64,000 bases of DNA from Arenicellales bacterium. GTDB lineage: Bacteria > Pseudomonadota > Gammaproteobacteria > BMS3Bbin11. Location: NCBI GenBank assembly GCA_029287915.1, contig JARFQE010000125.1, forward strand, positions 18,114 to 82,113. The letters run 5' to 3'. This document shows positions 1 to 16,015 of this stretch, piece by piece (within the stretch, counting starts at the first letter, position 1; each line of letters begins with the position of its first letter). The notes beneath the pieces were generated by a model, which had not been told where the DNA came from, searched no databases, and was given only the letters and a program-made list of their open reading frames with translations. A program made the position numbers and the translations under genes.

Positions 1-1118
1 GCGCGGGTATTGTTGTTACCTATCGTGTGTTGGGTACCGCCCATACACCAGATAAAGGTTCCCGGTCGATGATCGGCCATTACCTTGGCGGCGGTATATA
101 TCTGCTCTTCCGGCACACCTGACACACGCTCGACTTCTTCCGGTGTCCATTTCGCGACCTCTTGCCTGACCTCATCGAGACCGTAAACGCGCTGGCGGAT
201 AAATTCCTTGTCTTCCCAGCCATTCTTGAAGATGTGCCATATCATGCCCCAGATAACGGCAACGTCGGATCCGGGACGAATTCTCATAAAGTGGTCTGCA
301 TGTGAAGCCGTACGTGTAAAACGTGGATCAATGACGATAAGCGGTGCGTTGTTTTCTTCCTTCGCTTTGAACACATGCTGCATGGAAACAGGGTGCGCCT
401 CGCTGGGATTACCGCCGATAATCAGGATCGCCTTGCTATTATGTATATCATTATAGGAGTTGGTCATGGCGCCGTAGCCCCATGTATTGGCGACGCCGGC
501 TACCGTGGTTGAATGGCAGATACGTGCCTGGTGATCAACATTATTGGTGCCCCACAATGCGGCAAATTTCCTGAACAGGTAAGCCTGTTCATTGCTATGC
601 TTGGCTGAGCCCAGCCAGTAAACAGAATCAGGACCAGATTGTTCACGGATCTGCAGCAAGCGGTCGCCGACTTCATTGATGGCCTCCTCCCAGGAGATTT
701 TCGTCCACTTGCCATTGACCAGCTTGGTCGGATATTTAAGGCGACGCTCTCCATGGCCATGTTCCCGCACTGAGGCGCCTTTTGCACAGTGAGCGCCAAG
801 ATTGAATGGATGATCAAAGGCCGGCTCCTGCCCGGTCCAGACGCCGTTCTGTACTTCAGCAATAATGCCGCAGCCCACTGAACAGTGTGTACAGATGGTC
901 TTCACCTCGGTGGTGTCACCTTCGGCAGATGTAGCAGCACTGGCTTTAGCCTTTTTCATCATTGTTGGGCTGAGGGTGGTCGCAAGTGCAGCGCCACCGG
1001 CCATCAATCCAGAGTTTCGCAGGAAGCCGCGTCGTGATAGGGCTCGCCCATGCCCTGCCGACACAGTCTGTGATTTATTATTTTGCGAAATTTGATCCGA
1101 TGTTTTTGTCAGTTTCAT
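1..1118 (-). CDS. Molybdopterin oxidoreductase catalytic subunit, formate dehydrogenase alpha-like (N-terminal ~372 aa; rest of gene lies beyond window start)
   Basis: Own minus-strand translation from ATG 1118..1116 (AGGAGA SD upstream): MKLTKTSDQISQNNKSQTVSAGHGRALSRRGFLRNSG... It has a twin-arginine signal (SRRGFLR) and the 4Fe-4S motif CTHCSVGCG. HQARICHSTTVAGV aligns with the FdnG/FdoG active-site segment but has Cys (residue 201) instead of Sec. It is absent from the ORF track because it runs off the window edge; track ORF 500..862 is an off-frame artefact. Confidence 0.85.
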   Translation of the reverse strand, partial: MKLTKTSDQISQNNKSQTVSAGHGRALSRRGFLRNSGLMAGGAALATTLSPTMMKKAKASAATSAEGDTTEVKTICTHCSVGCGIIAEVQNGVWTGQEPAFDHPFNLGAHCAKGASVREHGHGERRLKYPTKLVNGKWTKISWEEAINEVGDRLLQIREQSGPDSVYWLGSAKHSNEQAYLFRKFAALWGTNNVDHQARICHSTTVAGVANTWGYGAMTNSYNDIHNSKAILIIGGNPSEAHPVSMQHVFKAKEENNAPLIVIDPRFTRTASHADHFMRIRPGSDVAVIWGMIWHIFKNGWEDKEFIRQRVYGLDEVRQEVAKWTPEEVERVSGVPEEQIYTAAKVMADHRPGTFIWCMGGTQHTIGNNNTR

Positions 1119-1143
1119 TACCATTCTCCTGTTACCGCGACGT

Positions 1144-1344
1144 TTATTTAGTGGCTGACCTGTAATACGCCAGCACATGCTCCGTCACGCGGTAGCCCGT
1201 TTTTTTATTTTCTTCCTGCTCTGCCTCTGTCAGGGTCAATGCAGAAGCAGTCGATGAAGCAGCAATCGCAGCTCCTGCTCCGGCAATTGCACTTTGCTGC
1301 AGGAACTTCCTGCGGCTGGACTGTTTAGAAGGTTGTTTTTTCAT
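1144..1344 (-). CDS. Small Tat-signal protein of the 'formate dehydrogenase region TAT target' type
   Basis: 66 aa with SRRKFLQQSAIAGAGAAIAASS twin-arginine leader, immediately upstream of the FDH-like alpha gene in the same orientation. Size and position match the small Tat-leader proteins recurrently found beside FDH genes. Confidence 0.7.
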   Translation of the reverse strand: MKKQPSKQSSRRKFLQQSAIAGAGAAIAASSTASALTLTEAEQEENKKTGYRVTEHVLAYYRSATK

Positions 1345-1433
1345 TGCATTTTCTCCTGACAGGAAAGTTTGTCTAGCGTTTAAATCTTCATAATTACTGT
1401 TATTAATGCTTCATTGCTGCGTAATTGAACATG

Positions 1434-2087
1434 TCATACTTCAGCCAGTAAATATCGTTTTTCAATTCCCATGAATGCAGCACCAAAACGCGCTACGGCT
1501 TTGTAGAACACCGCATTATTTGCCACTGACATGTCGGCAAAAAAGCGTTCGAACCAGGTGTCGATATGCTGGACAAAAAAACCACGCTGCAGATCTGTCT
1601 CCGCACCCTCCTGAATCAACATCACCATTACCTCGCATAGTGCTGCAATATGGTCTTCCGGCTCGTGCACATCCGCCGCACGCGTAAAACCCAGACGATC
1701 AAGATCATCGCGTAGATCACCGAGCGGCTTTTCCATCAGGAACCCGGTCAGGTAGAAAGAGCCATATGGCACCAGCTCCCCCCTTCCCAGACCGATAAAC
1801 AGGTCATGATACTCATCGCCGATCGACTGCGGCGAACGCTTTTCTGCCGCCAGTCCAAGCAAGGACATGGCAACTGTCATCTCATCACCGCCACCATCGA
1901 TATCTGCGAAGCAGGCGACGTGGTCAAGTAGTGACTGTTCCGGTATTGATCGCAGCAACGCTGCCAGCATCGCATAGGCTGAAGCCCGGTACTGTTGTTC
2001 CTCTGCCAGTGTTTTTTCATCCCAGTCGACAGCGGCCTGTACAGCTGATGGCTGGTTCTGAAGTTCTTCTGTCGAGGTCTGTGGCAT
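1434..2087 (-). CDS. TorD/DmsD-family redox-enzyme maturation chaperone
   Basis: 217 aa. Acidic helical protein with the TorD-like pattern (...YRASAYAMLAALL...DLDRLGF...EPEDHIAALCEVM...), co-oriented between a Tat-dependent molybdoenzyme and its Fe-S partner. Confidence 0.7.
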   Translation of the reverse strand: MPQTSTEELQNQPSAVQAAVDWDEKTLAEEQQYRASAYAMLAALLRSIPEQSLLDHVACFADIDGGGDEMTVAMSLLGLAAEKRSPQSIGDEYHDLFIGLGRGELVPYGSFYLTGFLMEKPLGDLRDDLDRLGFTRAADVHEPEDHIAALCEVMVMLIQEGAETDLQRGFFVQHIDTWFERFFADMSVANNAVFYKAVARFGAAFMGIEKRYLLAEV

Positions 2088-2229
2088 GTAGGGTTACTCC
2101 TTTGATTTACCTAACTATTGCAATAAGCAGGCCAATGAAAAAATGAAAATAATGACTAAAATGGAACAAAAGTCCTAATTGGGTGACAGCAATTTGGGTT
2201 ACGCTGGTACATAAATGAAACTTCGTGAC

Positions 2230-3885
2230 TTAATGTGTAATCCTTTCGGTGTCGATACCTTTACCCATCATCTCTTCATCCTGCACGATGTCTACCACCC
2301 GACAGTCTTCACACATCTTCAATCGGCGCATAGCGTTATCATCGGTAAACATCCAGTGACCGGCCAGCTTTGCCACCATGTTGTTTATCACAGACTGACT
2401 CGCAAATGGTTTGCCGCAGGCGACACAACAGAACGGTTCTTCCTCATAAAGGGTAACCGGCTGGTTACGGCGCTGATGATCAAACACCAATCGCGGTGTG
2501 ATCCAGATGGCATCCTCCGGACAGGTACGCGTACACAAACCACATTGCAGACAATTTGACTCTATGAATCGAACCTGTGGTACATCCTGTCCACTCTGCA
2601 GAGCATTGCCCGGGCAGGCACTGACACAGGATAAACACAGAGTACAGGATTTCTCATCAATACCGGCGACACCAAAAGGCGCCCCTGCAGTAAGTGCCAC
2701 CATCGGCGCCGGTTGCCCGTTGCTGCCCGCCAGCGCCTGTTGATAGAGGGCGTCTATCGCCATGAACACGGTCTGGCGTTTCCCGCCTGCGCCGGCAAAA
2801 GTGCTCGTTTTAATGGGCGGCATTGCACGCTGTGTGTCACCCTCTTTATGCAGCCACTGCGTCTCGACACGCCGCACAGCATCTGCTGGATAATGCATGG
2901 CAGTCAATATTTCTCTTGCAGTGACCAGCTGCTGGTCAATTTCGTGACTAACGCGGGCAGGAATTGTTCCATCATCGACAAGCAAAACACTGCTGGCACC
3001 ATAGGCAAGCGCTGACAACCAGGTTTCGAGACCAACACTGGCAAGTTCTTCAACTGCAACAGGTAGTAAATTGGCGGCACAGGATTCAGCAGGCACTAAT
3101 CCCCCCGCATGAAATACCAGTACCGGCTGCTGGCCACCTTGTTCAAGGTATACCTTCAATAGACAGCGCAGCTGGGCAAGCAGGTCATCGGTGGTGGGAT
3201 AGACATAACGGATTGCACCGCTTGGACAGACTGTGGCACAGGCACCACCACCCTGGCACAGGTGAGATTCTACTTCTATCATCTCGGCAAGACCTTTGAT
3301 GGCATCAGCTGGACAGGCATCGATACAGCGAGTACAGGCAATAATGCCGGAGCGTCCATGGGCACAGATGGCGGGGTTGTAGTCGAAGTACTTTGGTTTC
3401 TCGAAGGTTCCGGTCAGTGCCGACAACTGTGCAACAGCCGACCGCCGGTCGTCGTCCGCCATGCTACTGTAGACATAGCCCGGCGGTTTGACAGCCATCG
3501 ATAATAATGGCGTCGCTGACAGGTCAAGAACAAGATCTGCCTGCAGGCTTTCAGTGTCGTCAAGCCGCATGGCCTCTTCTTCACCTGCCCCGTGCAGGGT
3601 GATGGTGAAGTTACCGAGGTAACCTTCGACTGTGACCGTTCTGTCACGCCTGCTGGTATATGGTATACCGTCTGCCGCCTTGCCTGCATCGAGGATAAGG
3701 TGTGGTTTCAACGCACCCTGCAGCTCTGCAACAACCTGCTGGGTGCGCTCATCACCAATAATCGCAACGACACCAGCTGACTCATACTTCACCAGGCTGG
3801 TGGGCCGAACTGATAGTGTCGATAGCGCAGCCAGTGCCGCTTCCCGCGCCTGTTTGTTCAAGTCGTCAGCGCTACTTATAGTCAT
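2230..3885 (-). CDS. Multi-cluster 4Fe-4S ferredoxin-domain (polyferredoxin-like) protein
   Basis: At least four CxxCxxCxxxCP ferredoxin motifs (CTRCIDACPADAI, CQGGGACATVCPSGAI, CTLCLSCVSACPGNAL, CLQCGLCTRTCPEDAI) plus extra Cys pairs near the C-terminus. Start placed at MTISS (SD AGGGGA 6 nt upstream); the track ORF extends to 3912. Confidence 0.8.
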   Translation of the reverse strand: MTISSADDLNKQAREAALAALSTLSVRPTSLVKYESAGVVAIIGDERTQQVVAELQGALKPHLILDAGKAADGIPYTSRRDRTVTVEGYLGNFTITLHGAGEEEAMRLDDTESLQADLVLDLSATPLLSMAVKPPGYVYSSMADDDRRSAVAQLSALTGTFEKPKYFDYNPAICAHGRSGIIACTRCIDACPADAIKGLAEMIEVESHLCQGGGACATVCPSGAIRYVYPTTDDLLAQLRCLLKVYLEQGGQQPVLVFHAGGLVPAESCAANLLPVAVEELASVGLETWLSALAYGASSVLLVDDGTIPARVSHEIDQQLVTAREILTAMHYPADAVRRVETQWLHKEGDTQRAMPPIKTSTFAGAGGKRQTVFMAIDALYQQALAGSNGQPAPMVALTAGAPFGVAGIDEKSCTLCLSCVSACPGNALQSGQDVPQVRFIESNCLQCGLCTRTCPEDAIWITPRLVFDHQRRNQPVTLYEEEPFCCVACGKPFASQSVINNMVAKLAGHWMFTDDNAMRRLKMCEDCRVVDIVQDEEMMGKGIDTERITH

Positions 3886-3926
3886 TATTTTCCCCTGCCT
3901 GTTGCTTCGCATTTACCTGCATGGAG

Positions 3927-4562
3927 TCAACTATTCCCCGTCTGCTCGGGTAGCTGCTTATCTGCAGTCATTGAAATGTCATTTTCAATGTCATTTTTGA
4001 CCTCTGTTGCTGCCTCTTTGGCTCGATTAACTCCTTCTATATCACTACCTGCCTCTATTCCATTTACAGGCTCAATTTGGTGCGATGAGCCATCATTGCC
4101 TGCATCTGCCAGCACTTCATTGCTGCCATCGTCCTCCATCGCATCCTTGAGACGCGCCATCTGGTGACGCATCTCTGCAGTGATGACGTTACCGAGCTTC
4201 TGAAAACTGGTGAAATCATCATCATAGTCATCCAGCCCGTCACGCTCATTGAACACCCCGCCCCGAAACAATTTGCGTAGCGCCAGGTTGCGCAATTCGT
4301 CACTGACATTGGGAGACATAAAACCACTGTAGTCTGAATCTTCATCAAGGCTTTCGATTGGCGGCATATCACTATCGCCTGGCAAATCGTCTTTAGCCAT
4401 AACCGCATTTTCCTGCAGCTCGTCTTCAGCAAATGTCTGCGTGACCGAGATATCATTAGCAGCATCATTAACGTCGACTTTTGCCTGCTGCTTGCGGCGC
4501 GACCAGCGTGATAGAAAACCTTCGTCAGACGGTACTTCCAGGTCAGTTTTAGAGTGGCTCAT
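3927..4562 (-). CDS. DUF3306-like acidic protein (FDH-operon associated)
   Basis: 211 aa. N-terminal FLSRWSRRK motif followed by a highly acidic low-complexity body. It overlaps the next gene by 4 nt (operonic). Confidence 0.6.
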   Translation of the reverse strand: MSHSKTDLEVPSDEGFLSRWSRRKQQAKVDVNDAANDISVTQTFAEDELQENAVMAKDDLPGDSDMPPIESLDEDSDYSGFMSPNVSDELRNLALRKLFRGGVFNERDGLDDYDDDFTSFQKLGNVITAEMRHQMARLKDAMEDDGSNEVLADAGNDGSSHQIEPVNGIEAGSDIEGVNRAKEAATEVKNDIENDISMTADKQLPEQTGNS

Positions 4563-5104
4563 GATCGATTCGCCGCAGCTCCGTGACTTTCTTTACGCCA
4601 GTCCCTGCGTTTCCGTTTCACGCGTTTTTCTGGCATGTAATGCTGTAACACAAACTCTTCCGTCCAACGATAAAGCTCTGCCGGCAAGGGCACGGTAAAA
4701 GCCTCGCCCTCACATTCAACATAGGCATTGGCTTCATCGAAACTCAGAGTCACTTTAGAGGGTACAGGTTTCTCGTCGTCGCTAGTGCGGGTGATGACAT
4801 AACAACCGGGTTCGGGCGATACCAGGTTATGGTAATAACTCTCACATTCATCGACATGCAATGTAATAGTGAATCCCGAATACAGTATCTGCTGGGTACC
4901 GGCCTGTTCCTGAATAACACGCGCACGAGTGCGAGTAGCGGTATCGTCAGTGGCACCAGTCTGGGGATCGCCCGTTACACCGGTAGCGCGCCAGACTTCA
5001 TCTACCCATGGGTTGCTCGATTGACGCCGTTCCATGATAACGGCGACAGACATACTTTGCGGCAGGCTCTGTTTTGTATCTTCCAGTATGGACACTGGTA
5101 TCAT
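4559..5104 (-). CDS. DUF3305-like protein (FDH-operon associated)
   Basis: Track ORF 4559..5119 (186 aa). I prefer the MIPVS start at 5104 because AGGA lies 7 nt upstream. It is the first gene of the minus-strand operon and sits directly downstream of a sigma-54 promoter. Confidence 0.55.
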   Translation of the reverse strand: MIPVSILEDTKQSLPQSMSVAVIMERRQSSNPWVDEVWRATGVTGDPQTGATDDTATRTRARVIQEQAGTQQILYSGFTITLHVDECESYYHNLVSPEPGCYVITRTSDDEKPVPSKVTLSFDEANAYVECEGEAFTVPLPAELYRWTEEFVLQHYMPEKRVKRKRRDWRKESHGAAANRS

Positions 5105-5142
5105 TTTGTTCCTGGTCAATTGATCTAGATAAGCTATATAAG

Positions 5143-5158
5143 TGCAAGTTGTGTGCCA
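5143..5158 (-). promoter_or_regulatory. sigma-54 (RpoN) -24/-12 promoter, perfect consensus, driving the DUF3305...FDH operon
   Basis: The plus strand reads TGCAAGTTGTGTGCCA. Its reverse complement is TGGCAC-ACAAC-TTGCA, which is exactly TGGCAC-N5-TTGCA. It lies about 40 nt upstream of the MIPVS start. Confidence 0.6.
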
Positions 5159-5428
5159 GTGAGAAAATAGCCAGCATGGTCAGCTGAATCACTCTGTACA
5201 GGAAGCCTGCTCTGGATGTGATATGTTTTTGAATGGCACAAAATGTCCCATTCATCCTGCCATAAAGGTACAAGTTGTCGCAGTCAGTGTCAGAACAGCA
5301 GAGATAATTTTAGACAAATTTCATATACTTGGTAACATTTCTATCCAAGCTGATGAGATAGACGAACTGGAACATATCTTGCTTTATTACAGGAATTAGA
5401 TGACTTTTTTGCAGGCACAAACCAGTCC

Positions 5429-6442
5429 ATGACTATAACAGAAACAGGCACATGCAATCAGCTGACAGACCGCTTTGGCCGGCACATCAATTACCTGCGC
5501 ATCTCTGTCACAGACCGTTGCGATTTGCGCTGTGTCTACTGCATGTCAGAAGACATGCAGTTTGTGCCACGTGCGCAGCTGCTGACACTTGAAGAAGTAA
5601 GCCGCATAGGACGAATATTCACCGAGCTTGGTGTCCATAAAATACGCATAACCGGCGGCGAACCATTAACACGACGCAATGTCATAGAAGTCTTCAGGCA
5701 ACTTGGCAAACTGGATGGATTAAAAGATCTGACGCTTACCACAAACGGTACACAGCTGGACAGGTTTGCCAGTGAGCTGCGCGATGCCGGTGTTAAGCGC
5801 ATCAACATCTCATTGGATACTCTGCAACAGGAGCGCTTCAGTAAAATTACCCGCACAGGAAGACTACAGCGTACGCTGGCGGGTATCGATGCTGCCCTGG
5901 CAGCTGGTTTTGAAAAGATAAAGATTAACTCTGTAATCCTCAGAAACCGTAATCATGACGAGATTATTGAACTGGTAGAATTTGCTCACTCACGTGGCAT
6001 AGACATTAGTTTTATCGAGGAAATGCCGCTCGGCATTATTGGAGATCATGATCGTGCAGAAGCGTACATCTCCAGCGACGAGATTCTCGATATAATCAAG
6101 CAACGCCATGAACTGCTGCCCACAACAGAGAGCACCGGCGGCCCCTCACGTTACTACAGGCGTACCGATAACAGTGCACGTGTCGGCTTTATCTCTCCGC
6201 ATAGCCATAACTTCTGCGATGACTGCAATCGCGTCAGGCTGACAGCAGAAGGCCGGCTGCTGCTGTGCCTGGGCCAGGAACATTCGGTTGACCTGAGGCG
6301 GGTGGTACGTGCCAACCCGGCGGATGATGCCCCATTGCGGCAGGCGATTATTGATGCCATGACAATCAAACCGCGCGGACATGATTTCGATTTGACCAGC
6401 CAGCCCGTCATCCTGCGACATATGAACAGCACTGGCGGATAA
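5429..6442 (+). CDS. moaA: GTP 3',8-cyclase MoaA (radical SAM, molybdenum cofactor biosynthesis)
   Basis: 337 aa. CDLRCVYCM radical-SAM cluster motif near the N-terminus, C-terminal second-cluster cysteines (CDDCNRVRLTAEG), typical MoaA length. Confidence 0.95.
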   Translation: MTITETGTCNQLTDRFGRHINYLRISVTDRCDLRCVYCMSEDMQFVPRAQLLTLEEVSRIGRIFTELGVHKIRITGGEPLTRRNVIEVFRQLGKLDGLKDLTLTTNGTQLDRFASELRDAGVKRINISLDTLQQERFSKITRTGRLQRTLAGIDAALAAGFEKIKINSVILRNRNHDEIIELVEFAHSRGIDISFIEEMPLGIIGDHDRAEAYISSDEILDIIKQRHELLPTTESTGGPSRYYRRTDNSARVGFISPHSHNFCDDCNRVRLTAEGRLLLCLGQEHSVDLRRVVRANPADDAPLRQAIIDAMTIKPRGHDFDLTSQPVILRHMNSTGG

Positions 6443-6478
6443 GACGCCCGACAATGCAGGCAGCTGAGTAAAAAAATT

Positions 6479-7366
6479 ATGACAAAACAGAGTGAAGCCA
6501 TAGCCAGCAGCCCACTCCCGGAGATGACCAATGCCGGTTTACAGGCCTCCACAGCGATCACCGCAATTGATGAATTTGGCCAGCCACGCGCAGGACATAT
6601 CGCGGCTGAACGGGCACTGACGGTTTACCTCGACAAACAGGAAATTGTTACCCTGATGACGCTCGGCACCCAGCCAGAGCTGCTAGTACTTGGCTGGCTG
6701 CGCAATCAGCGACTGCTGACGGATGTGTCCCAGATCAAGGCCATCCAGGTTGACTGGGAAACCGGTTCTGCCGCCATCACTACGCGCAATGGTATTGCTG
6801 ATCTTGATGTCAAACTTGGGCGCCGCACCGTGACCACGGGCTGCGGGCAGGGAACCGTATTTGGCAGCCTGATGGATGACCTCGAGCACATCAGCCTGCC
6901 GCGTGTTCGCGTGCGCCAGTCGACGCTATACAGACTTCTGGACACCCTTAGCCAGCATAACGAAGTCTATAAACGTGCAGGCGCCGTACATGGCTGTGCA
7001 CTGTGCATGGATCACCGTATGCAGCACTTTGTAGAAGATGTCGGACGTCATAATGCAGTTGATGCAATTGCCGGCCAGATGTGGCTGAACGGCACACAGG
7101 GACATAACAAGCTTTTTTACACCACTGGCCGATTAACCTCCGAGATGGTAATCAAGGTTGCACAAATGGGAATACCCGTGCTGCTTTCCCGTTCGGGTGT
7201 TACCGAGATGGGCCAGGCACTGGCTGAAAAGATTGGCGTCACGCTGATCGCACGCGCAAAGGGTAAGCACTTCCTTGTTTATAACGGTGCCGAGCAGGTC
7301 GAATTTGACGCTATGCCGGAAAAACCTCTCTATCATTCACCGAGCACAGCACCGGGGCGGCGCTAA
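6479..7366 (+). CDS. fdhD: Formate dehydrogenase accessory sulfurtransferase FdhD
   Basis: 295 aa. GRRTVTTGCGQG (active Cys loop), EDVGRHNAVDAI, LSRSGVTEMGQALAEKIGVTLIARAKG; collinear with E. coli FdhD. Confidence 0.9.
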   Translation: MTKQSEAIASSPLPEMTNAGLQASTAITAIDEFGQPRAGHIAAERALTVYLDKQEIVTLMTLGTQPELLVLGWLRNQRLLTDVSQIKAIQVDWETGSAAITTRNGIADLDVKLGRRTVTTGCGQGTVFGSLMDDLEHISLPRVRVRQSTLYRLLDTLSQHNEVYKRAGAVHGCALCMDHRMQHFVEDVGRHNAVDAIAGQMWLNGTQGHNKLFYTTGRLTSEMVIKVAQMGIPVLLSRSGVTEMGQALAEKIGVTLIARAKGKHFLVYNGAEQVEFDAMPEKPLYHSPSTAPGRR

Positions 7367-7369
7367 ATC

Positions 7370-8284: not shown

Positions 8285-8576
8285 TTGCCAGTGGCGCCTA
8301 AATTTTAATGATGCATAGCCCATTCACCCATCATCAAACTACCGATTGCTTCTCTTGCTACAGTCCCTGTAAGAATCAAGCATTGAGTAACTTAACATTT
8401 CAGCAATGACCATCTGAGACTGTCTGCTTAGGCATTATCAGAAATTGTACATATACTCGTTACCGGAGACGCCTTTGTTGACCATATTTTCTGCAATTCG
8501 ACAAGTATGCAATGGCTCAGCGATTCCATGCCGCTTGGTCACCTAGCAAGCAGTAATACTGCTCATCACAGATCGC

Positions 8577-9998
8577 TTACGCCGATTCGCTTGTACCCCA
8601 GGCCTGTACTTTACGTTCCAGCGTCTTGCGCGACACACCAAGCAACCTGGCAGCCGCTGACTTGTTGCCACCCTCCCTGTCCAGGACTTTTAGAATATGA
8701 CGCTTCTCGACCGCTTCCAGCAGCATTGAATCAGCATCATCTTCTGTCACTGTTTGCTGCCCGTTGGCAGAAATACCACGCAGGCACTGTTCGGGAGTCT
8801 GATCCAGCAGCAGACAACGCTCAATCACATTTTTTAATTCACGGACGTTGCCCGGCCAGTTGTAACTGCGTAACTGAGCCAGTTCCCGATCCCTTATCTG
8901 ATGCGGTGGCACACCCATATCGGCAGATAGTTTCTGCATGAAAAACTCTACCAGGTCCGGGATATCATCAGGGCGTTCACGCAAGGTAGGCATGCGCACA
9001 GTAACAACATTCAGCCGATAGAACAGGTCCTCACGAAAATTACCTTTCTCGACCTCGTCTCCCAGCGCTCTGTTGGTCGCGGCAATTACGCGAACATCAA
9101 CCGGTATCTCACGGTTGGATCCTACCGGCCGGATTGACTGCTGTTCCAGAACCCGTAGTAGATGAACCTGCATGGAAAGCGGCATTTCACCAATTTCATC
9201 GAGAAACAGCGTACCATTACTGGCATAGTTGAATAATCCTTCGCGCCCCTGGTGAGCTCCAGTGAATGCTCCCTTGACGTGACCAAACAATTCACTTTCC
9301 AATAACTCGGCCGACATCGCGCCGCAATTGATCGGCACGAAGCTGCCGCTGCGTCCACTCCATGCATGGATCGCCCTCGCTGCCAGCTCCTTGCCGGTCC
9401 CTGATTCTCCTTCAATAAGCACTGTCGTTGGCATGGGTGCGATGCGCTTAATCACTTCACAGACATTTTTCATAGTCTGGCACTGTCCAACGATACCGCT
9501 GTCATAAAAATGATCAACCTGGCGACGCAGGACGACATTTTCCCTCTGTATACGCTGACTCTGCATGCAGCGCGCAACGGCTGCCATGATCTGATCCGTG
9601 CGAAATGGCTTCTGGATCAGATCCACAGCTCCGGCGCGCAATGCATCGATAGCGGTATCCACTGTGGCCTGGGCCGTGATAAAGATAAGCGAGGTACTGC
9701 TGCCCAGTCCGAGTAGCTTTGTTACCCATGCCAGTCCGGATTGGCCAGGCAAGTGCAGATCAGCAATGATAAGGTCGAAATTACAGCGCTCGGCAAGTGC
9801 CTGCGCTGTATTCACGTCAGCAGCCAGTTCAACCAAGCCGAAGTGTTTCTCCATACCATTGCACAGAAAGTTCCGGGTGTCCGCGTCTGCATCGATAATC
9901 AGCACAGAATTTTGTTTCAGCGACAATCCCTGTGAGTCGCCACTTAACGTTGTCTGCGTAACGCTAAATTCATCATTCTTGAAAGCTTGTTCGGCCAT
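8577..9998 (-). CDS. sigma-54-dependent response regulator (NtrC family enhancer-binding protein: REC-AAA+-HTH)
   Basis: 473 aa. Receiver domain (VLIIDADADTRNF...DLIIADLHLPGQSG), Walker A GESGTGKE, GAFTGA sigma-54 contact motif, ESELFGH, C-terminal Fis-type HTH. No histidine kinase is adjacent. Confidence 0.9.
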   Translation of the reverse strand: MAEQAFKNDEFSVTQTTLSGDSQGLSLKQNSVLIIDADADTRNFLCNGMEKHFGLVELAADVNTAQALAERCNFDLIIADLHLPGQSGLAWVTKLLGLGSSTSLIFITAQATVDTAIDALRAGAVDLIQKPFRTDQIMAAVARCMQSQRIQRENVVLRRQVDHFYDSGIVGQCQTMKNVCEVIKRIAPMPTTVLIEGESGTGKELAARAIHAWSGRSGSFVPINCGAMSAELLESELFGHVKGAFTGAHQGREGLFNYASNGTLFLDEIGEMPLSMQVHLLRVLEQQSIRPVGSNREIPVDVRVIAATNRALGDEVEKGNFREDLFYRLNVVTVRMPTLRERPDDIPDLVEFFMQKLSADMGVPPHQIRDRELAQLRSYNWPGNVRELKNVIERCLLLDQTPEQCLRGISANGQQTVTEDDADSMLLEAVEKRHILKVLDREGGNKSAAARLLGVSRKTLERKVQAWGTSESA

Positions 9999-10253
9999 TA
10001 ATCATATCCTTATTGGTCTCTTTTTATAGTTTTAATGGGAAAATTATCGTTATTTATCGTTAATAGACAACCCGCAACTTAACACATACGCGGCATTAAA
10101 CAATATAGTGTGACTAAATGTACCAATGGTTGACATGTTTTTGCGACATTTTTTCCCACACCATCAATGACTGTATAGCGAAACTCGGCCACCATTTTTT
10201 GTTGTCCCTGTGAATTGCTGTGGTCGTCGAAATGTCACATAGAAATCGGCTTG

Positions 10254-10270
10254 CTGGCATTATTCTTGCT
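10254..10270 (+). promoter_or_regulatory. Putative sigma-54 -24/-12 promoter upstream of tupA
   Basis: CTGGCAT-tattc-TTGCT has GG and GC at the canonical 12-nt spacing. It is 64 nt upstream of the tupA start and divergent from the NtrC-type activator gene. Confidence 0.5.
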
Positions 10271-10333
10271 GCTATGAATTAAAGCTGAGCAAAAATGATT
10301 CACCACACACAATAAACATCAAAGGAACCCAGG

Positions 10334-11203
10334 ATGCGATTCACCCGTCTGTTAAAAGTCTGCCTGCTGTTTATCAGTCTAAAACTCTCATTTGCTGCCA
10401 TCGCTGCAGAAGCTGGCAACGACCATGTATTAAAACTCGCCACCACAACAAGCACCGAAAACTCGGGACTGCTGCGTCACCTGTTGCCGGTATTTGAACG
10501 CGATACGGGTTACAAGGTACATGTCATCGCGGTAGGTACCGGCAAGGCACTGCGCATGGGGCGTGACGGCGATGTCGATGTCGTTCTGGTACACGCCCCC
10601 GCGGCTGAACAGAAATTCGTCGATGACGGGCATGGCGTGAAGCGCGTCGGTGTCATGTACAATGACTTTGTTATAGTCGGTCCGGTAGATGACCCGGCAG
10701 CCGCCGGCAACAGCAGCAGCGGCAATGAAGCGCTGAGCAGAATTGCAAAAAAAAAGGCAGTTTTTATCTCAAGGGGTGACGATTCGGGGACCAATAAAAA
10801 AGAACTGTCATTATGGAGAGAGGCCGGCATCAGACCACAGGAACCATGGTATCGAGAAGCCGGACAGGGTATGGGCAAGGTTCTGCAAATGGCAGGAGAA
10901 CTTTCAGCCTATACCCTCACTGACCGTGGGACCTGGCTGGCATTCATGAATAAATCACCATTACGTATTGTTTACCAGGACGACCCAGTGCTGTTCAACC
11001 CCTACGGTATCATCGCGGTCAACCCGGCACGTTATCCGGATATAAACTACACCGGCGCCCAGGCACTGATAAAGTGGATCACTTCACCGGCTGGCCAACT
11101 TTTAATAGGCAACTACACCGTTGCGGATTCGCTGCTATTCACCCCATCAGCCGATACGGGTCACCTGGCCAGTGAATATTCTGCTGCCGGCAAGACTGAA
11201 TAA
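10334..11203 (+). CDS. tupA: Tungstate ABC transporter substrate-binding protein TupA
   Basis: 289 aa, signal peptide, TTTSTENSGLL anion-binding motif characteristic of TupA rather than ModA. Confidence 0.8.
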   Translation: MRFTRLLKVCLLFISLKLSFAAIAAEAGNDHVLKLATTTSTENSGLLRHLLPVFERDTGYKVHVIAVGTGKALRMGRDGDVDVVLVHAPAAEQKFVDDGHGVKRVGVMYNDFVIVGPVDDPAAAGNSSSGNEALSRIAKKKAVFISRGDDSGTNKKELSLWREAGIRPQEPWYREAGQGMGKVLQMAGELSAYTLTDRGTWLAFMNKSPLRIVYQDDPVLFNPYGIIAVNPARYPDINYTGAQALIKWITSPAGQLLIGNYTVADSLLFTPSADTGHLASEYSAAGKTE

Positions 11204-11226
11204 AGCGGCAATTATCGGCACTCACT

Positions 11227-11928
11227 ATGTCTTCACTGAGCGGTGCAACCCTTGATGCTATAAGCCTTCTGGCAGGAGGCGATGCCCAGCTATGGGGAAT
11301 CATCGGTATTTCATTTCGCGTATCCACAACAGCAATTTTGATTGCCATCCCGCCATCGCTTTTGATTGCCTTCTTGCTTGCCTATGGCCGTTTTCCCGGA
11401 CGACGGCTGCTAATTTCGGTGTTCAGCACTCTGCTCTCGCTACCTGCAGTGGTGGTCGGACTGACGCTATACCTGGTATTGTCCAGGCATGGCCCGCTGG
11501 GTGACTGGAGACTTCTATTCTCCCAGACTGCCATGGTGATGGGTCAAATTGTGCTCTGTGTACCGATCCTGGTTGCCATGGGACATTCAGCTTTGCAGGC
11601 CGCTGACCGACGTGCATGGGAGACGGCCAGAACACTCGGTGCCGGCCCACTGCGCGCTGTACTGACTGTGATGCATGAAGTTCGCTTCGGACTGTTTGCC
11701 GCTCTACTGGCCGCTTATGGTCGCATCATTGCCGAGGTAGGCGCCTCGATGATGCTGGGTGGCAATATCCTTAACTACACCCGCAACATCCCAACCGCGA
11801 TTGCACTGGAAACCAGCAAGGGTGAATTCGCTCAGGGCATCGCACTCGGCATTGTCCTGCTGGTACTGGCGTTCATCCTCAATGGCTTGTTGCATTACCT
11901 GCAGGGCAAGGGACGTTTTGCTGTATGA
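11227..11928 (+). CDS. tupB: Tungstate ABC transporter permease TupB
   Basis: 233 aa multi-TM permease with ABC EAA-like loop; overlaps tupC start. Confidence 0.8.
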   Translation: MSSLSGATLDAISLLAGGDAQLWGIIGISFRVSTTAILIAIPPSLLIAFLLAYGRFPGRRLLISVFSTLLSLPAVVVGLTLYLVLSRHGPLGDWRLLFSQTAMVMGQIVLCVPILVAMGHSALQAADRRAWETARTLGAGPLRAVLTVMHEVRFGLFAALLAAYGRIIAEVGASMMLGGNILNYTRNIPTAIALETSKGEFAQGIALGIVLLVLAFILNGLLHYLQGKGRFAV

Positions 11929-12650
11929 GTTCGATGCTCAACCTCCAGTTCAATAATCTGTGCAAACGTTATCGTCGGCGTACTATTCTCGTTAATCTCG
12001 ATATCACCCTGCGGGATGGAGAATGCACACTGCTTTGCGGCTCCAATGGTGCCGGCAAAACAACCCTGTTGAGGATTATGGCCGGGCTCGAGAAACCGGA
12101 TCTGGGAACCATTGATTTCGGCTTCGGGCAAATGAAATGGCGGCGCTGCAAAAAGACTCTGCAGGAGAAGATCATGTACCTGCATCAACAGCCCTATATG
12201 TTCGATACAAGTGTCAGGAAGAACCTCGCTTATGCGCTGCCATCTGGTCTGAGCAATGCAGAGTGCAGTCAGCGTATCGATGAGGCATTGGAGTGGGCTG
12301 ACCTCAGGCGCCTGGCAACGGCCCCGGCAACAAACCTGTCAGGCGGTGAAGCGCAACGGGTTGCGCTGGCTCGGGCATGGCTGCGCATCCCACTGGTATT
12401 GCTGCTGGATGAGCCAATGGCCAACATGGACCAGGAATCCCGCCTGCGCACACACAATCTGCTGCGCCAACTAAAGGATCAGGGCATGGCGATCATCATC
12501 ACAAGCCATGACACAATGCAGTTCCAGTCACTATCGGACAGGCAATTAATACTCAAGGATGGCAAAATATCCATAGAACTCTCAACTAACCAGGCAGAGA
12601 ATGTAACGGCATTTCCGCTCGCTCAGACTTCCCTGCACGATACTGCATGA
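11925..12650 (+). CDS. tupC: Tungstate ABC transporter ATP-binding protein TupC
   Basis: 241 aa. Walker A GSNGAGKTT, signature LSGGEAQRVALARA, Walker B LLLDEP. It has no C-terminal TOBE domain, so it is TupC-type rather than ModC-type. Confidence 0.8.
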   Translation: MSSMLNLQFNNLCKRYRRRTILVNLDITLRDGECTLLCGSNGAGKTTLLRIMAGLEKPDLGTIDFGFGQMKWRRCKKTLQEKIMYLHQQPYMFDTSVRKNLAYALPSGLSNAECSQRIDEALEWADLRRLATAPATNLSGGEAQRVALARAWLRIPLVLLLDEPMANMDQESRLRTHNLLRQLKDQGMAIIITSHDTMQFQSLSDRQLILKDGKISIELSTNQAENVTAFPLAQTSLHDTA

Positions 12651-13252
12651 TAACGCCTGAAAAAAACAACATTACCGCCGTCATCCTGGCGGGTGGCCGT
12701 GGCAGTCGCCTCGGTGGCCAGGACAAGGGTATGCTGGAGCTCAATGGTAGACCATTGATTGAGCATATCCTTGATGCAGTCAAACCACAGGTTAAGACCG
12801 TCATTATCAATGCGAATCGCAACCATCAATTCTACGCTGGTTATGGTTACCCGGTGGTCAGCGATGACATGACAAATTTCCAGGGCCCATTGGCTGGTTT
12901 TGCCGCCGCGCTCTCCGCATGCAATACTAGTTTCGTCATGACCCTTCCCTGTGATGGCCCATCTGTACCGGTAGATCTTGCAGCTCGATTGTGCAAGGCA
13001 ATTATTGATAATGAAGCCGAATTAGCTGTTGCTCACGATGGTAAACGTTTGCAGCCAGTATACGCGTTAATACCACGCTCTTTACTTGCCAGCCTGCTGA
13101 CATTTCTCAATGCAGGTGATCGTAAGATAGACCTCTGGTATTCACAACATAAAGTAGCACTGGCAGATTTTTCCGATGTTATGAATAGCTTTTTCAATAT
13201 CAACACCGAAAAGGATCGTCGCCTGGCCACCAAACAAGAAATATCAGCATGA
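12647..13252 (+). CDS. mobA: Molybdenum cofactor guanylyltransferase MobA
   Basis: 201 aa, AVILAGGRGSRLGGQDKGML...LPCDGP; overlapping start/stop with neighbours. Confidence 0.9.
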   Translation: MITPEKNNITAVILAGGRGSRLGGQDKGMLELNGRPLIEHILDAVKPQVKTVIINANRNHQFYAGYGYPVVSDDMTNFQGPLAGFAAALSACNTSFVMTLPCDGPSVPVDLAARLCKAIIDNEAELAVAHDGKRLQPVYALIPRSLLASLLTFLNAGDRKIDLWYSQHKVALADFSDVMNSFFNINTEKDRRLATKQEISA

Positions 13253-13812
13253 GTAAGATATCAGCACCCATAGTGGGATTTTGCGCCTGGAGTGGCACAG
13301 GCAAGACGACTTTGCTAGCCCAGCTAATACCAATACTGGTCGCGCAGGGTCTAAGGATCGCTGTCGTCAAACATGCTCATCATGATTTTGATATCGATCA
13401 TCCCGGCAAGGACAGCTTTGAACTACGCAAAGCCGGTGCCAGCCAGATGCTGATTACATCGCGCAAACGTATGGCGGTAATTACCGAATTCGAACAACAT
13501 CGTGCAGAACCTTCACTCTATGATGCGCTTGAACGGATCAATATGCAGGAGTCTGATCTTGTCCTGGTAGAAGGATTCAAACACGAACCAATTAAAAAAA
13601 TTGAACTACACCGTGCAGAACTTAAAAAACCATTAATGTTTCCTGATGACCCAAATATTATTGCAATCGCCAGCGACCAGGCAATCATTGAAAACAGGAG
13701 TACGCTGCCACAACTGAACCTCAATAAACCGCAGCAAATAGCACAATTTATTGTAGACAATATCCTTGCAACAGAATCCTCTTTGACGTCATCAGGAGTC
13801 TGTCTACCGTGA
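13249..13812 (+). CDS. mobB: Molybdopterin-guanine dinucleotide biosynthesis adaptor MobB
   Basis: 187 aa, P-loop GFCAWSGTGKTTLL, VKHAHH motif. Confidence 0.9.
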   Translation: MSKISAPIVGFCAWSGTGKTTLLAQLIPILVAQGLRIAVVKHAHHDFDIDHPGKDSFELRKAGASQMLITSRKRMAVITEFEQHRAEPSLYDALERINMQESDLVLVEGFKHEPIKKIELHRAELKKPLMFPDDPNIIAIASDQAIIENRSTLPQLNLNKPQQIAQFIVDNILATESSLTSSGVCLP

Positions 13813-15077
13813 GCAATGTTATTAGATCCGTATCCTGTTGCGATGACTTGGCGGAAGCTGACACACTAACTGTTGATGAAGCACGCCGGCAAATTATTGA
13901 TAAAATTAATCCCATTACCAGTAGTGAAAAACTCAGCTTGCGAAATGCTCTCAGCAGAATACTGGCAGAGGATATCATTTCACCATTGGATGTACCGGGC
14001 CATACCAACTCTGCGATGGATGGTTATGCAGTGTCAGGTAATGACCTGCCACAGTCTGGTGAGCAGATTTACCAGGTTATTGGCAAGTCCCTAGCCGGTG
14101 CTCCATTTAACGGTAATTGCAATGCAGGCCAGTGTGTCCGCATCATGACCGGAGCAGTGATGCCGGATGGAACCGATACCGTCATCATGCAGGAACATGT
14201 AGCAGCAACTGCAACAGATACAGTGCAAATTGGTGACGGCCACCGCCCCGGGCAGAATGTTCGCCAGGCAGGTGAAGATATTTCAGCAGGTGGAACTGTA
14301 TTACAGACATCACACAAACTGACACCTGCTGACCTCGGTATCCTGTCGTCTTTAGGGATAGGCGAAGTCAAGGTGCGCCGGCGTCCACGTGTAGCATTCT
14401 TCTCCACCGGAGATGAGCTGCGTTCGATCGGTGAGTCGCTTGCGGAAGGCGATGTGTATGACAGCAATCGATATAGCCTGTATGGAATGCTTAAACGGCT
14501 GGACGTTGAAATACTGGACATGGGCGTCGTCAAAGATGACATCGATGAATTGAGAAATGCTTTTTCAAACGCTGCCTCAATGGCTGACGTAGTGATCACT
14601 TCCGGTGGTGTATCAGTCGGAGAGGCCGACTATATAAAACCCATTCTTGAACAGACAGGTGAAATAAATTTCTGGAAAATCGCCATGAAACCTGGGCGGC
14701 CACTGACCCATGGCCGGATAGGCAACAGCCTGTTCTTCGGCCTGCCCGGAAATCCAGTAGCAGTAATGGTCACCTTTTACCAGTTTGTTCAACCTGCACT
14801 GAATTATCTGGCTAGCGGCACAGAAAGCCTGCCATGGACCATGCTGGCTACCAGCAGCAATAATATTAACAAGCGCCCCGGCCGTTACGAGTTCCAGCGT
14901 GGAATACTCGAACAGGGTGCTGGAGGTCAGCTGACAGTCAGAAAAACCGGTCAGCAGGGCTCAGGTGTTCTGACCTCGATGAGTCGTGCCAACTGCTTCA
15001 TTTTATTACCAGAAAATTGTGATGGAGTCTCGGCTGGTGATGAGGTTCGTGTACAGCTGTTTGACACCTTTATCTGA
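13809..15077 (+). CDS. moeA: Molybdopterin molybdotransferase MoeA
   Basis: 422 aa, SGGVSVGEADY and GLPGNPVA motifs, MoeA N/C domain layout. Confidence 0.9.
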   Translation: MSNVIRSVSCCDDLAEADTLTVDEARRQIIDKINPITSSEKLSLRNALSRILAEDIISPLDVPGHTNSAMDGYAVSGNDLPQSGEQIYQVIGKSLAGAPFNGNCNAGQCVRIMTGAVMPDGTDTVIMQEHVAATATDTVQIGDGHRPGQNVRQAGEDISAGGTVLQTSHKLTPADLGILSSLGIGEVKVRRRPRVAFFSTGDELRSIGESLAEGDVYDSNRYSLYGMLKRLDVEILDMGVVKDDIDELRNAFSNAASMADVVITSGGVSVGEADYIKPILEQTGEINFWKIAMKPGRPLTHGRIGNSLFFGLPGNPVAVMVTFYQFVQPALNYLASGTESLPWTMLATSSNNINKRPGRYEFQRGILEQGAGGQLTVRKTGQQGSGVLTSMSRANCFILLPENCDGVSAGDEVRVQLFDTFI

Positions 15078-15436
15078 TTTAACTGAATACCAGCAATTCC
15101 GTTTCCCTGTATGACAAGCTATATGTTAGTTATAAATTGCGACTGCATGTAAGCTCTGTGCAAAATAATAAAATCCGCCAGCAGTATCAATCATACAGGC
15201 CGGGCAATTATCAGCTCACTCCATTGACCAGTGTGTTCTCTGATGCGTATCTGACAGACATCATGAGAGCGCTGAAAGATATACCTATCTGATATCTAAC
15301 CTCTAATTTGTATGGGTTAGCATTGAATGGCTTTATAAGGACAGTCTATAGCAGTAAAATACAGGTATATTCGTTGTATCATGACTGCGAATAGCCACCC
15401 GGCAGAAGCCTCTACCCATGAAACCGGTACAGCATT

Positions 15437-15727
15437 ATGAGCAAGAAAGACATCAGCAAGGAAGAAGAAATTCTACAACTGGTAAAAAACACCCTGACAA
15501 CCATCGCCAGGGATACCTATACCCCACCCGAACTATCTCATCCACTGTCGAGTGATACCATAAACCAGATAAGAAACTGTTTTTCAGTAATCACCCAACG
15601 TCAGCAGGAACTGGCACGCGCACGAGGCGAAGAATTCAACGATCGTCCGCATTTTATCGATGAAACTAACGATAGCTTTGTTATCTCCCTTGATGACTTC
15701 CGTGGGCCGGCCAAAAAGGAGGACTGA
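15437..15727 (+). CDS. Hypothetical small protein (96 aa)
   Basis: ORF with an SD-like region upstream, 2 nt from the next ORF. No recognisable motif. Confidence 0.4.
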   Translation: MSKKDISKEEEILQLVKNTLTTIARDTYTPPELSHPLSSDTINQIRNCFSVITQRQQELARARGEEFNDRPHFIDETNDSFVISLDDFRGPAKKED

Positions 15728-15729
15728 TC

Positions 15730-15969: not shown

Positions 15970-16015
15970 CTGCTTGCCTTAAGGCGTCAGGCCTGAAGAA
16001 GACTAAACGTTCGTC

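Follow-up and report, generated by a model that had tools for sequence, protein, structure and literature searches.

The closest described system is the formate dehydrogenase (FDH) of Shewanella oneidensis MR-1, FdhT-FdhX-FdhA1B1C1 (SO_4507-SO_4511; SoFdhAB, PDB 9VAP). The enzyme, whose gene cluster likewise includes FdhT and FdhX, is O2-tolerant and tungsten-dependent; both formate oxidation and CO2 reduction have been measured, and in 2026 it was found to carry 0.78 W and 0.05 Mo per protein despite 0.5 mM molybdate in the medium (PMC13066108). TupA/TupB are encoded in S. oneidensis as well (SO_4719/4720); for SO4718 the annotation gives a sigma-54 two-component regulator of tungstate transport. 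The operon class DUF3305-DUF3306-fer4-TorD/DmsD-'fdh tat'-fdhGHI was described by Bay et al. 2015 (PMC4464133). For the cytoplasmic, NAD-linked MeFDH1 of Methylorubrum extorquens, the W branch of cofactor synthesis requires MoeA1, MobB, MobA as well as FdhD, and the Arg/Ala pair R291/A312 of MoeA1 (MeMoeA1) biases insertion towards W (PMC13197769).

The island described here lies at the left end of the window, by which is meant the whole 64,000-nucleotide stretch analysed. Its gene order is identical to that of S. oneidensis (TorD-like protein, small Tat protein, alpha, beta, cytochrome b), and its gene set and order are identical to those of the Bay et al. class. In the window the fdh, cofactor, regulator and tup operons adjoin one another, whereas in Shewanella they lie about 200 genes apart, judging by locus number.

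Extent of the island

Pfam and NCBIfam searches located every gene named in the initial annotation in the place given for it. That annotation had described a 15-kb island with a single theme. The gene content stands, as does the right end at 15077, which is a sensible boundary because the next gene (16016-18130) encodes an unrelated YgiQ radical-SAM protein; on the left, however, the same theme continues for about 6.5 kb past the edge of the window, as seen on metagenome contigs that are 99.9% identical to it. These contigs supply the remaining FDH subunits for which upstream sequence had been wanted, namely FdhB and the cytochrome-b FdhC in a full fdhA-fdhB-fdhC series, with FdhA complete at 971 aa (L001:10970-13885). 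On the same contigs fdhC is followed, unlike in S. oneidensis, by a TmcC/DsrK-like pair.

The formate dehydrogenase and its partners

The window itself holds the first 372 of the 971 fdhA codons (1-1118, minus strand), which encode the Tat motif SRRGFLR, an Fe4S4 domain and Cys201-His202 within ARICH, in agreement with the Tat-exported, Cys-type subunit first proposed. S. oneidensis FdhA, also Cys-type and Tat-exported, is the closest PDB sequence to the complete protein (9VAP; 1515 bits, with 67% identity along its full length, 930 residues being aligned). As to whether the subunit groups with FDHs or with other molybdoenzymes, its 24 highest-ranking PDB matches by sequence consist throughout of FDHs and FDH-family oxidoreductases (two of them entered as "probable oxidoreductase YjgC"), and Nap comes next. 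FdhB scores 341 against an FDH3-beta cut-off of 240 and FdhC 176 against an FDH-gamma cut-off of 116. Upstream of fdhA lie fdhX (1144-1344, minus strand), encoding 66 aa with a twin-arginine signal of their own and matching TIGR02811, "formate dehydrogenase region TAT target" (58.5 bits, cut-off 48.45), and fdhT (1434-2087, minus strand; PF02613, 98 bits), a chaperone of the TorD/DmsD family (NarJ subfamily) for Tat proofreading and cofactor insertion that is the counterpart of Shewanella FdhT, SO_4507. The fdhX gene was absent from the gene list of the initial annotation.

E. coli FDH-N (FdnGHI, PDB 1KQF) likewise has a periplasmic alpha-beta pair anchored by a cytochrome b, is exported by Tat and requires FdhD, but it has Sec and Mo, and FdhA aligns with it at only 269 bits. 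E. coli uses FdhE and not a TorD-like chaperone with FdhX.

At the head of the fdh operon are three genes, all on the minus strand, whose products, soluble and cytoplasmic, may be maturation or electron-supply factors for FdhA: DUF3305 (4559-5119; gene callers start it at ATG 5104), DUF3306 (3927-4562; PF11748) and a cytoplasmic multidomain Fe-S protein of 551/560 aa (2230-3912). Bay et al. call DUF3305 and DUF3306 putative membrane proteins (PMC4464133), whereas neither sequence here has a hydrophobic segment. DUF3305, for which no solved structural relative was found, is modelled as a soluble alpha/beta fold; DUF3306, which is mostly acidic and conserves FLSRWSRRK and SDYSxF..ALRKLF..DGLDDY in an alignment of 11 homologues, is probably disordered. 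The Fe-S protein, or "polyferredoxin", has Rossmann-like domains without a GxGxxG motif, two di-cluster ferredoxin domains and, at the C-terminus, a Cys4 site. It had been called a four-cluster ferredoxin; the ferredoxin motifs are there, but the invariant cysteines number 19 (7 + 4 + 4 in these motifs, plus a C-terminal CxxC...CxxC), and the figure of four clusters is therefore approximate.

Cofactor synthesis and tungstate transport

The cofactor genes, all on the plus strand, comprise moaA, encoding GTP 3',8-cyclase (5429-6442; TIGR02666, 377 bits, cut-off 284), fdhD, encoding the FDH sulfurtransferase and cofactor-delivery protein (6479-7366; PF02634, 254 bits), mobA (12647-13252; TIGR02665, 233 bits, cut-off 152), mobB (13249-13812; TIGR00176, 154 bits, cut-off 76) and moeA, encoding the metal insertase (13809-15077; NF007960, 587 bits, cut-off 440). 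All four proteins of the Methylorubrum pathway are thereby represented, though here, unlike in M. extorquens, moeA, mobA and mobB share an operon with tupABC (PMC13197769). No Moco riboswitch was found. In an alignment to E. coli MoeA, R297 and A318 of the window protein fall on E. coli K282/S303 and on R291/A312 of MeMoeA1, with which it agrees at both selectivity positions, giving it the W-selective type. This Arg/Ala pair is found in 17 MoeA proteins (16 tup-linked gammaproteobacterial ones, and one copy in alphaproteobacterial locus L056); it is not universal, the tup-linked MoeA of Firmicutes, Acidobacteria and others having K/S, as do the second MoeA copies of L032 and L056.

The transporter genes are tupA (10334-11203), encoding the periplasmic tungstate-binding protein, the permease gene tupB (11227-11928) and the ATPase gene tupC (11925-12650), all on the plus strand. 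TupA does contain TTTSTENSG, and in the suggested comparison with a characterized TupA all 8 of 8 pocket residues of the Desulfovibrio alaskensis protein (TTTS, H59, R118, T124 and D170) were kept, as T37-T39, S40, H87, R147, T153 and D197. Its best PDB matches are the TupA proteins of Vibrio parahaemolyticus, Geobacter sulfurreducens and D. alaskensis G20 (3MUQ, 3LR1 and 5MY5; E-values 1e-70 to 1e-84), whose pocket residues are all common to it. TupA, TupB and TupC all fall short of the cut-offs of their NCBIfam equivalog models (244 against 400 for TupA), and TupC, without a C-terminal regulatory domain, is short at 241 aa against a 319-position model. The 4-nt overlaps noted after tupB are real, four in number (ATGA three times, GTGA once).

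Some FDHs take either metal. The island could be a molybdenum-cofactor island, with a Mo or either-metal FDH and TupABC as a general molybdate/tungstate importer, but we consider this unlikely. D. alaskensis TupA does bind molybdate with a Kd of 6 nM, yet it prefers tungstate about 1000-fold; the window MoeA passes the E. coli-type MoeA model's cut-off, yet it has the molybdate-disfavouring Arg/Ala pair; and while modABC was not seen, the scope of that search was 64 kb of the genome. The 67%-identical Shewanella enzyme took W, not Mo, at 0.5 mM molybdate, and it is by such homology that the island FDH is taken to be a tungsten enzyme. A substrate other than formate is extremely improbable. FdhA reaches no NCBIfam FDH-alpha equivalog cut-off, which would suit such a reading, but it retains the Cys-His pair and the RGxxNVQG arginine, its Shewanella relative has measured activity in both directions, and each of its partners (FdhD, FdhX, FDH3-beta and FDH-gamma) is encoded too.

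Promoters and regulators

Co-regulation of metal supply and FDH had been suggested from the outset, and it is supported because sigma-54 promoters and a shared upstream site are found at all three operons. The -24/-12 promoter of the fdh operon, TGGCACACAACTTGCA (5143-5158, minus strand), is the sole perfect match in 64 kb; a sigma-54-type promoter with one mismatch, TGGAACATATCTTGCT (5368-5383, plus strand), precedes moaA, and TGGCATTATTCTTGCT (10255-10270, plus strand) serves tupABC-mobAB-moeA. The pattern TGGCAC-N5-TTGCW, with at most one mismatch, has 7 matches in 128 kb of strand, and 3 of these lie, correctly oriented, no more than 100 bp upstream of the three operons, for which we estimate a chance probability of about 4e-6. 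The tupA site occurs in 18 of 18 loci with the activator adjoining tupA; of the 62 other loci, 4 have it (background 0.13 per kb). Weaker fdh-operon sites of the same geometry are seen in L009 and L011, and in several relatives (L008, L026) the sites before DUF3305 are weak or undetected.

In both intergenic sets the motif ranked first by a de novo k-mer search was the palindrome GnGWCAWWWTGTCCC, which occurs in pairs about 30-34 bp apart and about 85-140 bp upstream of the promoters. The predicted activator-site pairs in the window are GGCACAAAATGTCCC and GGTACAAGTTGTCGC, 32 bp apart (5235-5281, between the divergent fdh and moaA promoters), and GTGACTAAATGTACC and GCGACATTTTTTCCC, 33 bp apart (10110-10157; 138 and 105 bp upstream of the tupA -24 element).

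Two regulators are encoded. One (8577-9998, minus strand) is a sigma-54 activator of the NtrC family, with a receiver, an AAA+ domain containing GAFTGA, and HTH_8. Its receiver is partly degenerate, having D36-A37-D38 instead of D-D-E with the loss of one acidic-pocket Asp, and no kinase gene follows it in the window, though a sensor kinase is there in 13 of 17 related loci and S. oneidensis likewise differs in this respect. The other, the third gene of the moaA-fdhD operon (7370-8284, plus strand), has the HTH_17 and PBP_like domains expected from its earlier description as TunR-like. TunR (DVU0179) is reportedly a tungstate-responsive regulator of Desulfovibrio, the work of Kazakov et al. 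in 2013; the likeness is one of architecture, an N-terminal excisionase-type HTH and a C-terminal PBP-like domain. To the regulator in the window no operator was assignable.

It is rather unlikely that the paired palindromes are operators of this TunR-type regulator instead of sigma-54 activator sites. The order moaA-fdhD-regulator is retained in 7 relatives, and in other phyla at least 12 loci have distant HTH+PBP homologues beside tupA/tupB; but conservation of the motif reaches out to Vibrio, and loci of Vibrio and Halomonadaceae show it with the same pairing and distance from the -24/-12 element beside an activator and kinase, with no HTH+PBP regulator within 10 kb. Paired palindromes about 100 bp upstream are, moreover, the usual layout for NtrC-family activators. 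That the fdh, moaA and tup operons are simply neighbours under independent regulation, "island" being purely descriptive, is very unlikely. The order does vary by lineage, being rearranged in L015, L016 and L023, Vibrio and Halomonadaceae keep only the tup-mob-moe part beside the activator, and the moaA sigma-54 site is poorly conserved among relatives. Against this stand the three correctly placed promoters, the motif shared by both intergenic regions in six loci, and the recurrence of the whole order in L008, L009, L011 and L022, which L024 and L026 also follow up to the ends of those loci.

A probable tungsten-dependent formate dehydrogenase island

In the pathway we propose, tungstate would be imported by TupABC and pterin synthesis begun by MoaA, the remaining pterin steps having to be encoded elsewhere in the genome. 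W would then be inserted by the tungsten-selective-type MoeA together with MobB, and GMP groups added by MobA to give W-bis-MGD, which FdhD would sulfurate and hand over to apo-FdhA in the cytoplasm. FdhT would keep hold of the Tat signal until FdhA is loaded, after which FdhA-FdhB would be exported by Tat and dock on FdhC. All three operons would be expressed from their sigma-54 promoters, the divergently encoded activator probably driving them through the paired palindromes, and the HTH+PBP_like regulator may add sensing of intracellular tungstate or molybdate.

Published work already covers the operon type and the annotation of the Shewanella tup regulator; new are the sigma-54 promoters before all three operons with paired palindromic sites upstream, the partly degenerate receiver with its absent kinase, and the features of DUF3305 and the "polyferredoxin" described above. 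There is good support for the first reading of this DNA, as a tungsten-dependent FDH with its own metal supply, and the island is a correct but largely ordinary case of an arrangement known in Shewanella and related bacteria. It is probably a self-contained set of genes with which a tungsten-dependent formate dehydrogenase is made and used, the enzyme being Cys-type, periplasmic and quinone-linked and of the Shewanella FdhT-X-A-B-C kind.

Gene content of the island

An ORF listing and six-frame translation, combined with Pfam and NCBIfam scans, reproduced the gene list of the initial annotation, to which one gene is added. The fdh operon lies on the reverse strand and contains, from the left edge of the window, the first 372 codons of fdhA (1-1118), encoding a molybdopterin oxidoreductase with the Tat motif SRRGFLR, an Fe4S4 domain and Cys201-His202 in HQARICHSTTV; fdhX (1144-1344), which was absent from the earlier list and encodes 66 aa with their own twin-arginine signal; a TorD/DmsD-family chaperone (1434-2087; PF02613); an Fe-S protein of 551/560 aa (2230-3912); DUF3306 (3927-4562); and DUF3305 (4559-5119). 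Divergent from this operon, on the forward strand, are moaA, fdhD and the gene for an HTH_17+PBP_like regulator (5429-8284). A sigma-54 activator of receiver-AAA+-HTH_8 architecture (8577-9998, reverse strand) is convergent on the moaA operon, and divergent from the activator lie tupA-tupB-tupC-mobA-mobB-moeA (10334-15077, forward strand), where the four 4-nt start/stop overlaps reported earlier are real. The gene after moeA encodes a YgiQ radical-SAM protein unrelated to the island, and no Mo/W-related gene was found among 10 large ORFs sampled from the remaining window.

Elsewhere in the window, an 861-aa ORF (49041-51626, reverse strand) combines an N-terminal part like the ornithine-lipid hydroxylase OlsE with an OlsH-like C-terminal part, an apparent fusion; a 910-aa ORF (18641-21373, forward strand) and a 485-aa ORF (31885-33342, forward strand) match nothing in NCBIfam at E <= 1e-10.

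The formate dehydrogenase and its metal

The window was extended to the left by looking up exact matches to the TorD-like protein, which gave 23 metagenome contigs. Where they overlap the window (1-12087 for L001-L005, 1-10068 for L006), the contigs L001-L006 match it at 99.88-99.94% identity, and they therefore reveal the sequence beyond its left edge. They supply the remainder of fdhA, 971 aa in all, and L001 carries, left of the window, fdhB (207 aa; FDH3-beta equivalog NF038355, 341 against a cut-off of 240) and fdhC (350 aa; FDH-gamma, TIGR01583, 176 against 116). The presence of all three genes on the extending contigs indicates that the predicted enzyme is a complete periplasmic formate dehydrogenase (FDH) with alpha, beta and cytochrome b subunits.

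Only 3 nt past fdhC (L001:15696-17637) lie genes for a TmcC/HmcE-like membrane anchor of 212 aa and a DsrK/TmcB/HmcF-like CCG Fe-S protein of 423 aa, followed in L001-L006 by yebC and ruvCAB. Such pairs of TmcC-like and DsrK-like proteins are typical of the transmembrane electron complexes of sulfate reducers; none was seen beside fdhC in any other fetched locus.

FdhA has the N-terminal Fe4S4, molybdopterin and dinucleotide-binding domains (PF04879, PF00384 and PF01568). Both Cys201-His202 (ARIC201-H202) and R395 (in FR395GHDNVQG) are present and identical, in alignment, to those of SoFdhA, the Shewanella oneidensis FdhA; we take them to be the equivalents of U140-H141 and R333 of Escherichia coli FdhH. 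In a comparison of the full FdhA with every PDB sequence, ranks 1 to 24 went to FDHs or oxidoreductases of the FDH family and Nap came after them, so that the catalytic subunit is closer to characterised FDHs than to other members of the DMSO-reductase superfamily, as had been supposed. The best match is chain A of 9VAP, the SoFdhA structure, at 1515 bits over the full length, with 622 of 930 aligned positions identical (67%). On the FDH-alpha equivalogs of NCBIfam the FdhA of the island scores 481 against 666, under the cut-off.

SoFdhA (SO_4509) contains 0.78 W and 0.05 Mo per protein, though the cells were grown with an extra 0.5 mM molybdate, and its activity is lost without W (PMC13066108). 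Its gene cluster comprises FdhT (TorD-like), FdhX, FdhA, FdhB and FdhC (PMC13066108), and the window together with L001 encodes a matching set. The 67% identity to this W-containing enzyme suggests that FdhA likewise has tungsten in its active site and catalyses formate oxidation or CO2 reduction; this is the strongest single argument for tungsten, and it is one from homology. FdhX adjoins fdhA, has an SRRKFL motif and scores above the cut-off of TIGR02811, the family named 'formate dehydrogenase region TAT target' (58.5 against 48.45 bits). The chaperone also adjoins its Tat substrate and scores 98 bits against 22 on PF02613; that it reaches neither the TorD nor the DmsD equivalog cut-off is what one would expect of the FDH-linked clade (PMC4464133).

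Predicted tungstate transport and cofactor branch

Among solved structures, TupA is closest to Vibrio VP1501 (3MUQ), Geobacter TupA (3LR1) and Desulfovibrio alaskensis TupA (5MY5), with E values of 1e-70 to 1e-84. The pocket of the D. alaskensis protein consists of T9-11, S12, H59, R118, T124 and D170; R118 controls discrimination, and the Kd is 6 pM for tungstate against 6 nM for molybdate. A printed alignment and residue counting place T37-39, S40, H87, R147, T153 and D197 at these positions in the window TupA, so that every named residue is matched. TupA, TupB and TupC match their NCBIfam equivalog models, all under the cut-offs; for TupA the sole family matched is NF041772 (244 bits against 400).

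In Methylorubrum extorquens a W-specific branch requires MoeA1, MobB and MobA as well as FdhD; the selectivity of MoeA1 has been assigned to R291, where canonical insertases have Lys, and A312, where they have Ser (S303 in E. coli) (2026 study, PMC13197769). Aligned with E. coli MoeA, the window MoeA reads KPGRP for KPGKP and GNPVA for GNPVS, that is, R297 for K282 and A318 for S303. Among the TupA-fetched loci the Arg/Ala pair was found in 17 MoeA proteins, 16 of them gammaproteobacterial and tup-linked and the other one copy in an alphaproteobacterial locus (L056). The second copies in L032 and L056 have Lys/Ser, as do the tup-linked MoeA of Firmicutes, Acidobacteria and others. The signature is thus clade-specific, yet it fits a putative dedicated W insertase in the island.

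The SoFdhA homology, the TupA pocket and the Arg/Ala MoeA support the initial annotation's reading of a W-containing FDH, and its underlying observation is confirmed; the island encodes a Shewanella-type FdhTXABC set, probably W-dependent, with TupABC and the predicted W cofactor branch.

The DUF3305, DUF3306 and Fe-S proteins

Operons of the form DUF3305-DUF3306-fer4-TorD/DmsD-'fdh tat'-fdhGHI have already been described by Bay et al., 2015 (PMC4464133). No signal peptide or hydrophobic segment was found in DUF3305, DUF3306, the Fe-S protein or the chaperone, which argues that all four are cytoplasmic. DUF3306 has a conserved basic N-terminal FLSRWSRRK, a variable acidic linker and a conserved SDYSxF..ALRKLF..DGLDDY block, as is typical of adaptors that bind through short motifs; it is probably largely disordered, and the DUF3305 fold has no solved relative. 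The model of the Fe-S protein (pLDDT 86, pTM 0.84) contains two Rossmann-like domains resembling those of the flavoproteins FNR, TrxR and HdrA. Because its loop reads VIGD in place of GxGxxG, flavin binding is doubtful. There are 19 invariant Cys, including those of a C-terminal CxxC...CxxC. A plain polyferredoxin of the NapF or FwdF type was considered for this protein and rejected, as only the ferredoxin motifs match and the two Rossmann-like domains are extra.

These three proteins could act in maturation of FdhA, or in electron supply to it, before export. It is possible, though less likely than not, that they form an uncharacterised cytoplasmic apparatus for redox chemistry or cofactor handling, which Tat-exported Cys-type FDHs would specifically need for loading or activating their W cofactor and, separately, that the sigma-54 activator of the W regulon has become kinase-independent in this lineage. 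The module is the most interesting part of the island.

Occurrence in other genomes

A TupA scan with one genome per species gave 80 loci, the nearest of which is in an Arenicellales MAG (TupA 69%, TupB 87%, MoeA 72%), followed by Candidatus Thiodiazotropha; the host is therefore a gammaproteobacterium to which no sequenced genome in that set is closely related. The DUF3305 and Fe-S protein homologues, which occur in Arenicellales, Thiodiazotropha, Sedimenticola, Thiogranum and Cocleimonas, agree with the TupA picture. When the gene order was mapped by tblastn of all island proteins, the whole order was also found in four relatives (L008, L009, L011 and L022), and, within the stretch that each covers, in L024 and L026; it is rearranged in L015-L017 and L023. 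The unit of activator and tupABC-mobAB-moeA is also present in Halomonadaceae and Vibrio.

Sigma-54 promoters and paired palindromes

Searching the whole window for TGGCAC-N5-TTGCW with at most one mismatch yielded one perfect and six one-mismatch -24/-12 sites, and three of the seven stand in the right orientation a short way upstream of the island's three operons. The perfect site (5143-5158, reverse strand) is 23 nt from the DUF3305 start; the others precede moaA (5368-5383, forward strand) and tupA (10255-10270, forward strand). With 4 background sites per 128 kb of strand, about 0.03 would be expected in the roughly 930 positions examined, and the probability of three such sites by chance is estimated at about 4e-6. 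All 18 loci with the activator beside tupA have a -24/-12 site upstream of tupA, as do 4 of the other 62, where chance would give about 2.7. The moaA promoter and the fdh promoters of several relatives are weak or undetected; the tup promoter is the well-supported one. In the literature searched for sigma-54 control of tupA, nothing came up beyond one annotation line: S. oneidensis SO4718, beside TupA/TupB, is listed as a sigma-54 two-component regulator of tungstate transport. Scans for sigma-70 promoters and terminators gave matches at chance level, and an Rfam scan of window 1-16100 (E <= 1) detected neither a Moco/Tuco riboswitch nor any other family.

Both by inspection and in an unbiased k-mer search, the best-conserved element of the activator/tupA and DUF3305/moaA intergenic regions is GnGWCAWWWTGTCCC, whose sites are paired, 30-34 bp apart. 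One pair (10110-10157) is 105/138 bp from the tupA -24 element; for the other (5235-5281) the distance is 84/116 bp to the -24 element of fdh and 126/94 bp to that of moaA, and the fdh geometry is kept in L009 and L011. Two proteins of the island could be considered as the binder. The regulator combines an excisionase-type HTH with a PBP_like domain (PF12728 and PF12727) and is syntenic with tup and Moco genes; on its domain architecture we presume it to resemble TunR of D. vulgaris. A search against PDB sequences found no relative of it, and its BLASTP match to TupA is not significant (E 0.04). A separate operator specific to the regulator was rejected, as the candidate 'TAGACAA' elements are half-sites of the palindrome. 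Because the palindrome also occurs in Vibrio and Halomonadaceae loci without the HTH+PBP regulator, it is assigned to the sigma-54 activator as predicted binder.

About 50 bp upstream of the activator start codon, TTATCGTTA occurs twice (10044-10062) with a 10-bp period; it is a candidate operator for the promoter of the activator itself, unless the repetition is due to chance.

The activator and its kinase

The activator, a member of the NtrC family, has a receiver, an AAA+ domain with GAFTGA and Walker A kept, and HTH_8. Directly after its gene, 13 of 17 related activator-bearing loci (L008-L011, L022, L024, L026, L029, L031-L033, L039 and L048; L040 has a partial match only) have a gene for a kinase of about 680 aa with sCache_3, HAMP, HisKA and HATPase domains. 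In the window the activator and regulator genes are just 292 non-coding bases apart (8285-8576), and tblastn with two orthologous kinases as queries found no sensor kinase at E <= 1e-3 in the 64 kb. The receiver has also changed: every listed activator with a kinase, that of L040 included, has V-D-D-E-P, where the window protein has I-D36-A37-D38-A (D-A-D for D-D-E), with the acceptor Asp80, Thr and Lys kept. The window activator thus lacks both a cognate kinase in the window and an intact acidic pocket. From these features it is probably still an active enhancer-binding protein with changed control, and probably not itself a conventional two-component partner.

In three gammaproteobacterial MAGs (L015, L016 and L017) the activator gene sits immediately upstream of DUF3305 in the same orientation and has no kinase; its phospho-acceptor Asp is replaced by Ser, Thr or Ala. 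Two-component control seems to have been lost here a second time, independently.

Significance

As genome annotation the result is ordinary. What the present analysis adds is the left-hand subunits, the Arg/Ala MoeA signature and the conserved sigma-54 promoter with its paired-palindrome regulon, together with the apparent loss of the kinase and, for two proteins not yet characterised, predicted structural models. W-dependent, O2-tolerant, Cys-type FDHs are sought as catalysts for CO2 reduction, and cofactor maturation limits their heterologous production. Here every known W-branch gene (tupABC, the Arg/Ala moeA, mobB, mobA, fdhD and moaA) lies beside the enzyme, along with three conserved uncharacterised proteins, so the candidate genes for expression work form a compact set. 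The palindrome and the sigma-54 promoter, both conserved, provide a testable regulon of tungsten homeostasis in Gammaproteobacteria.
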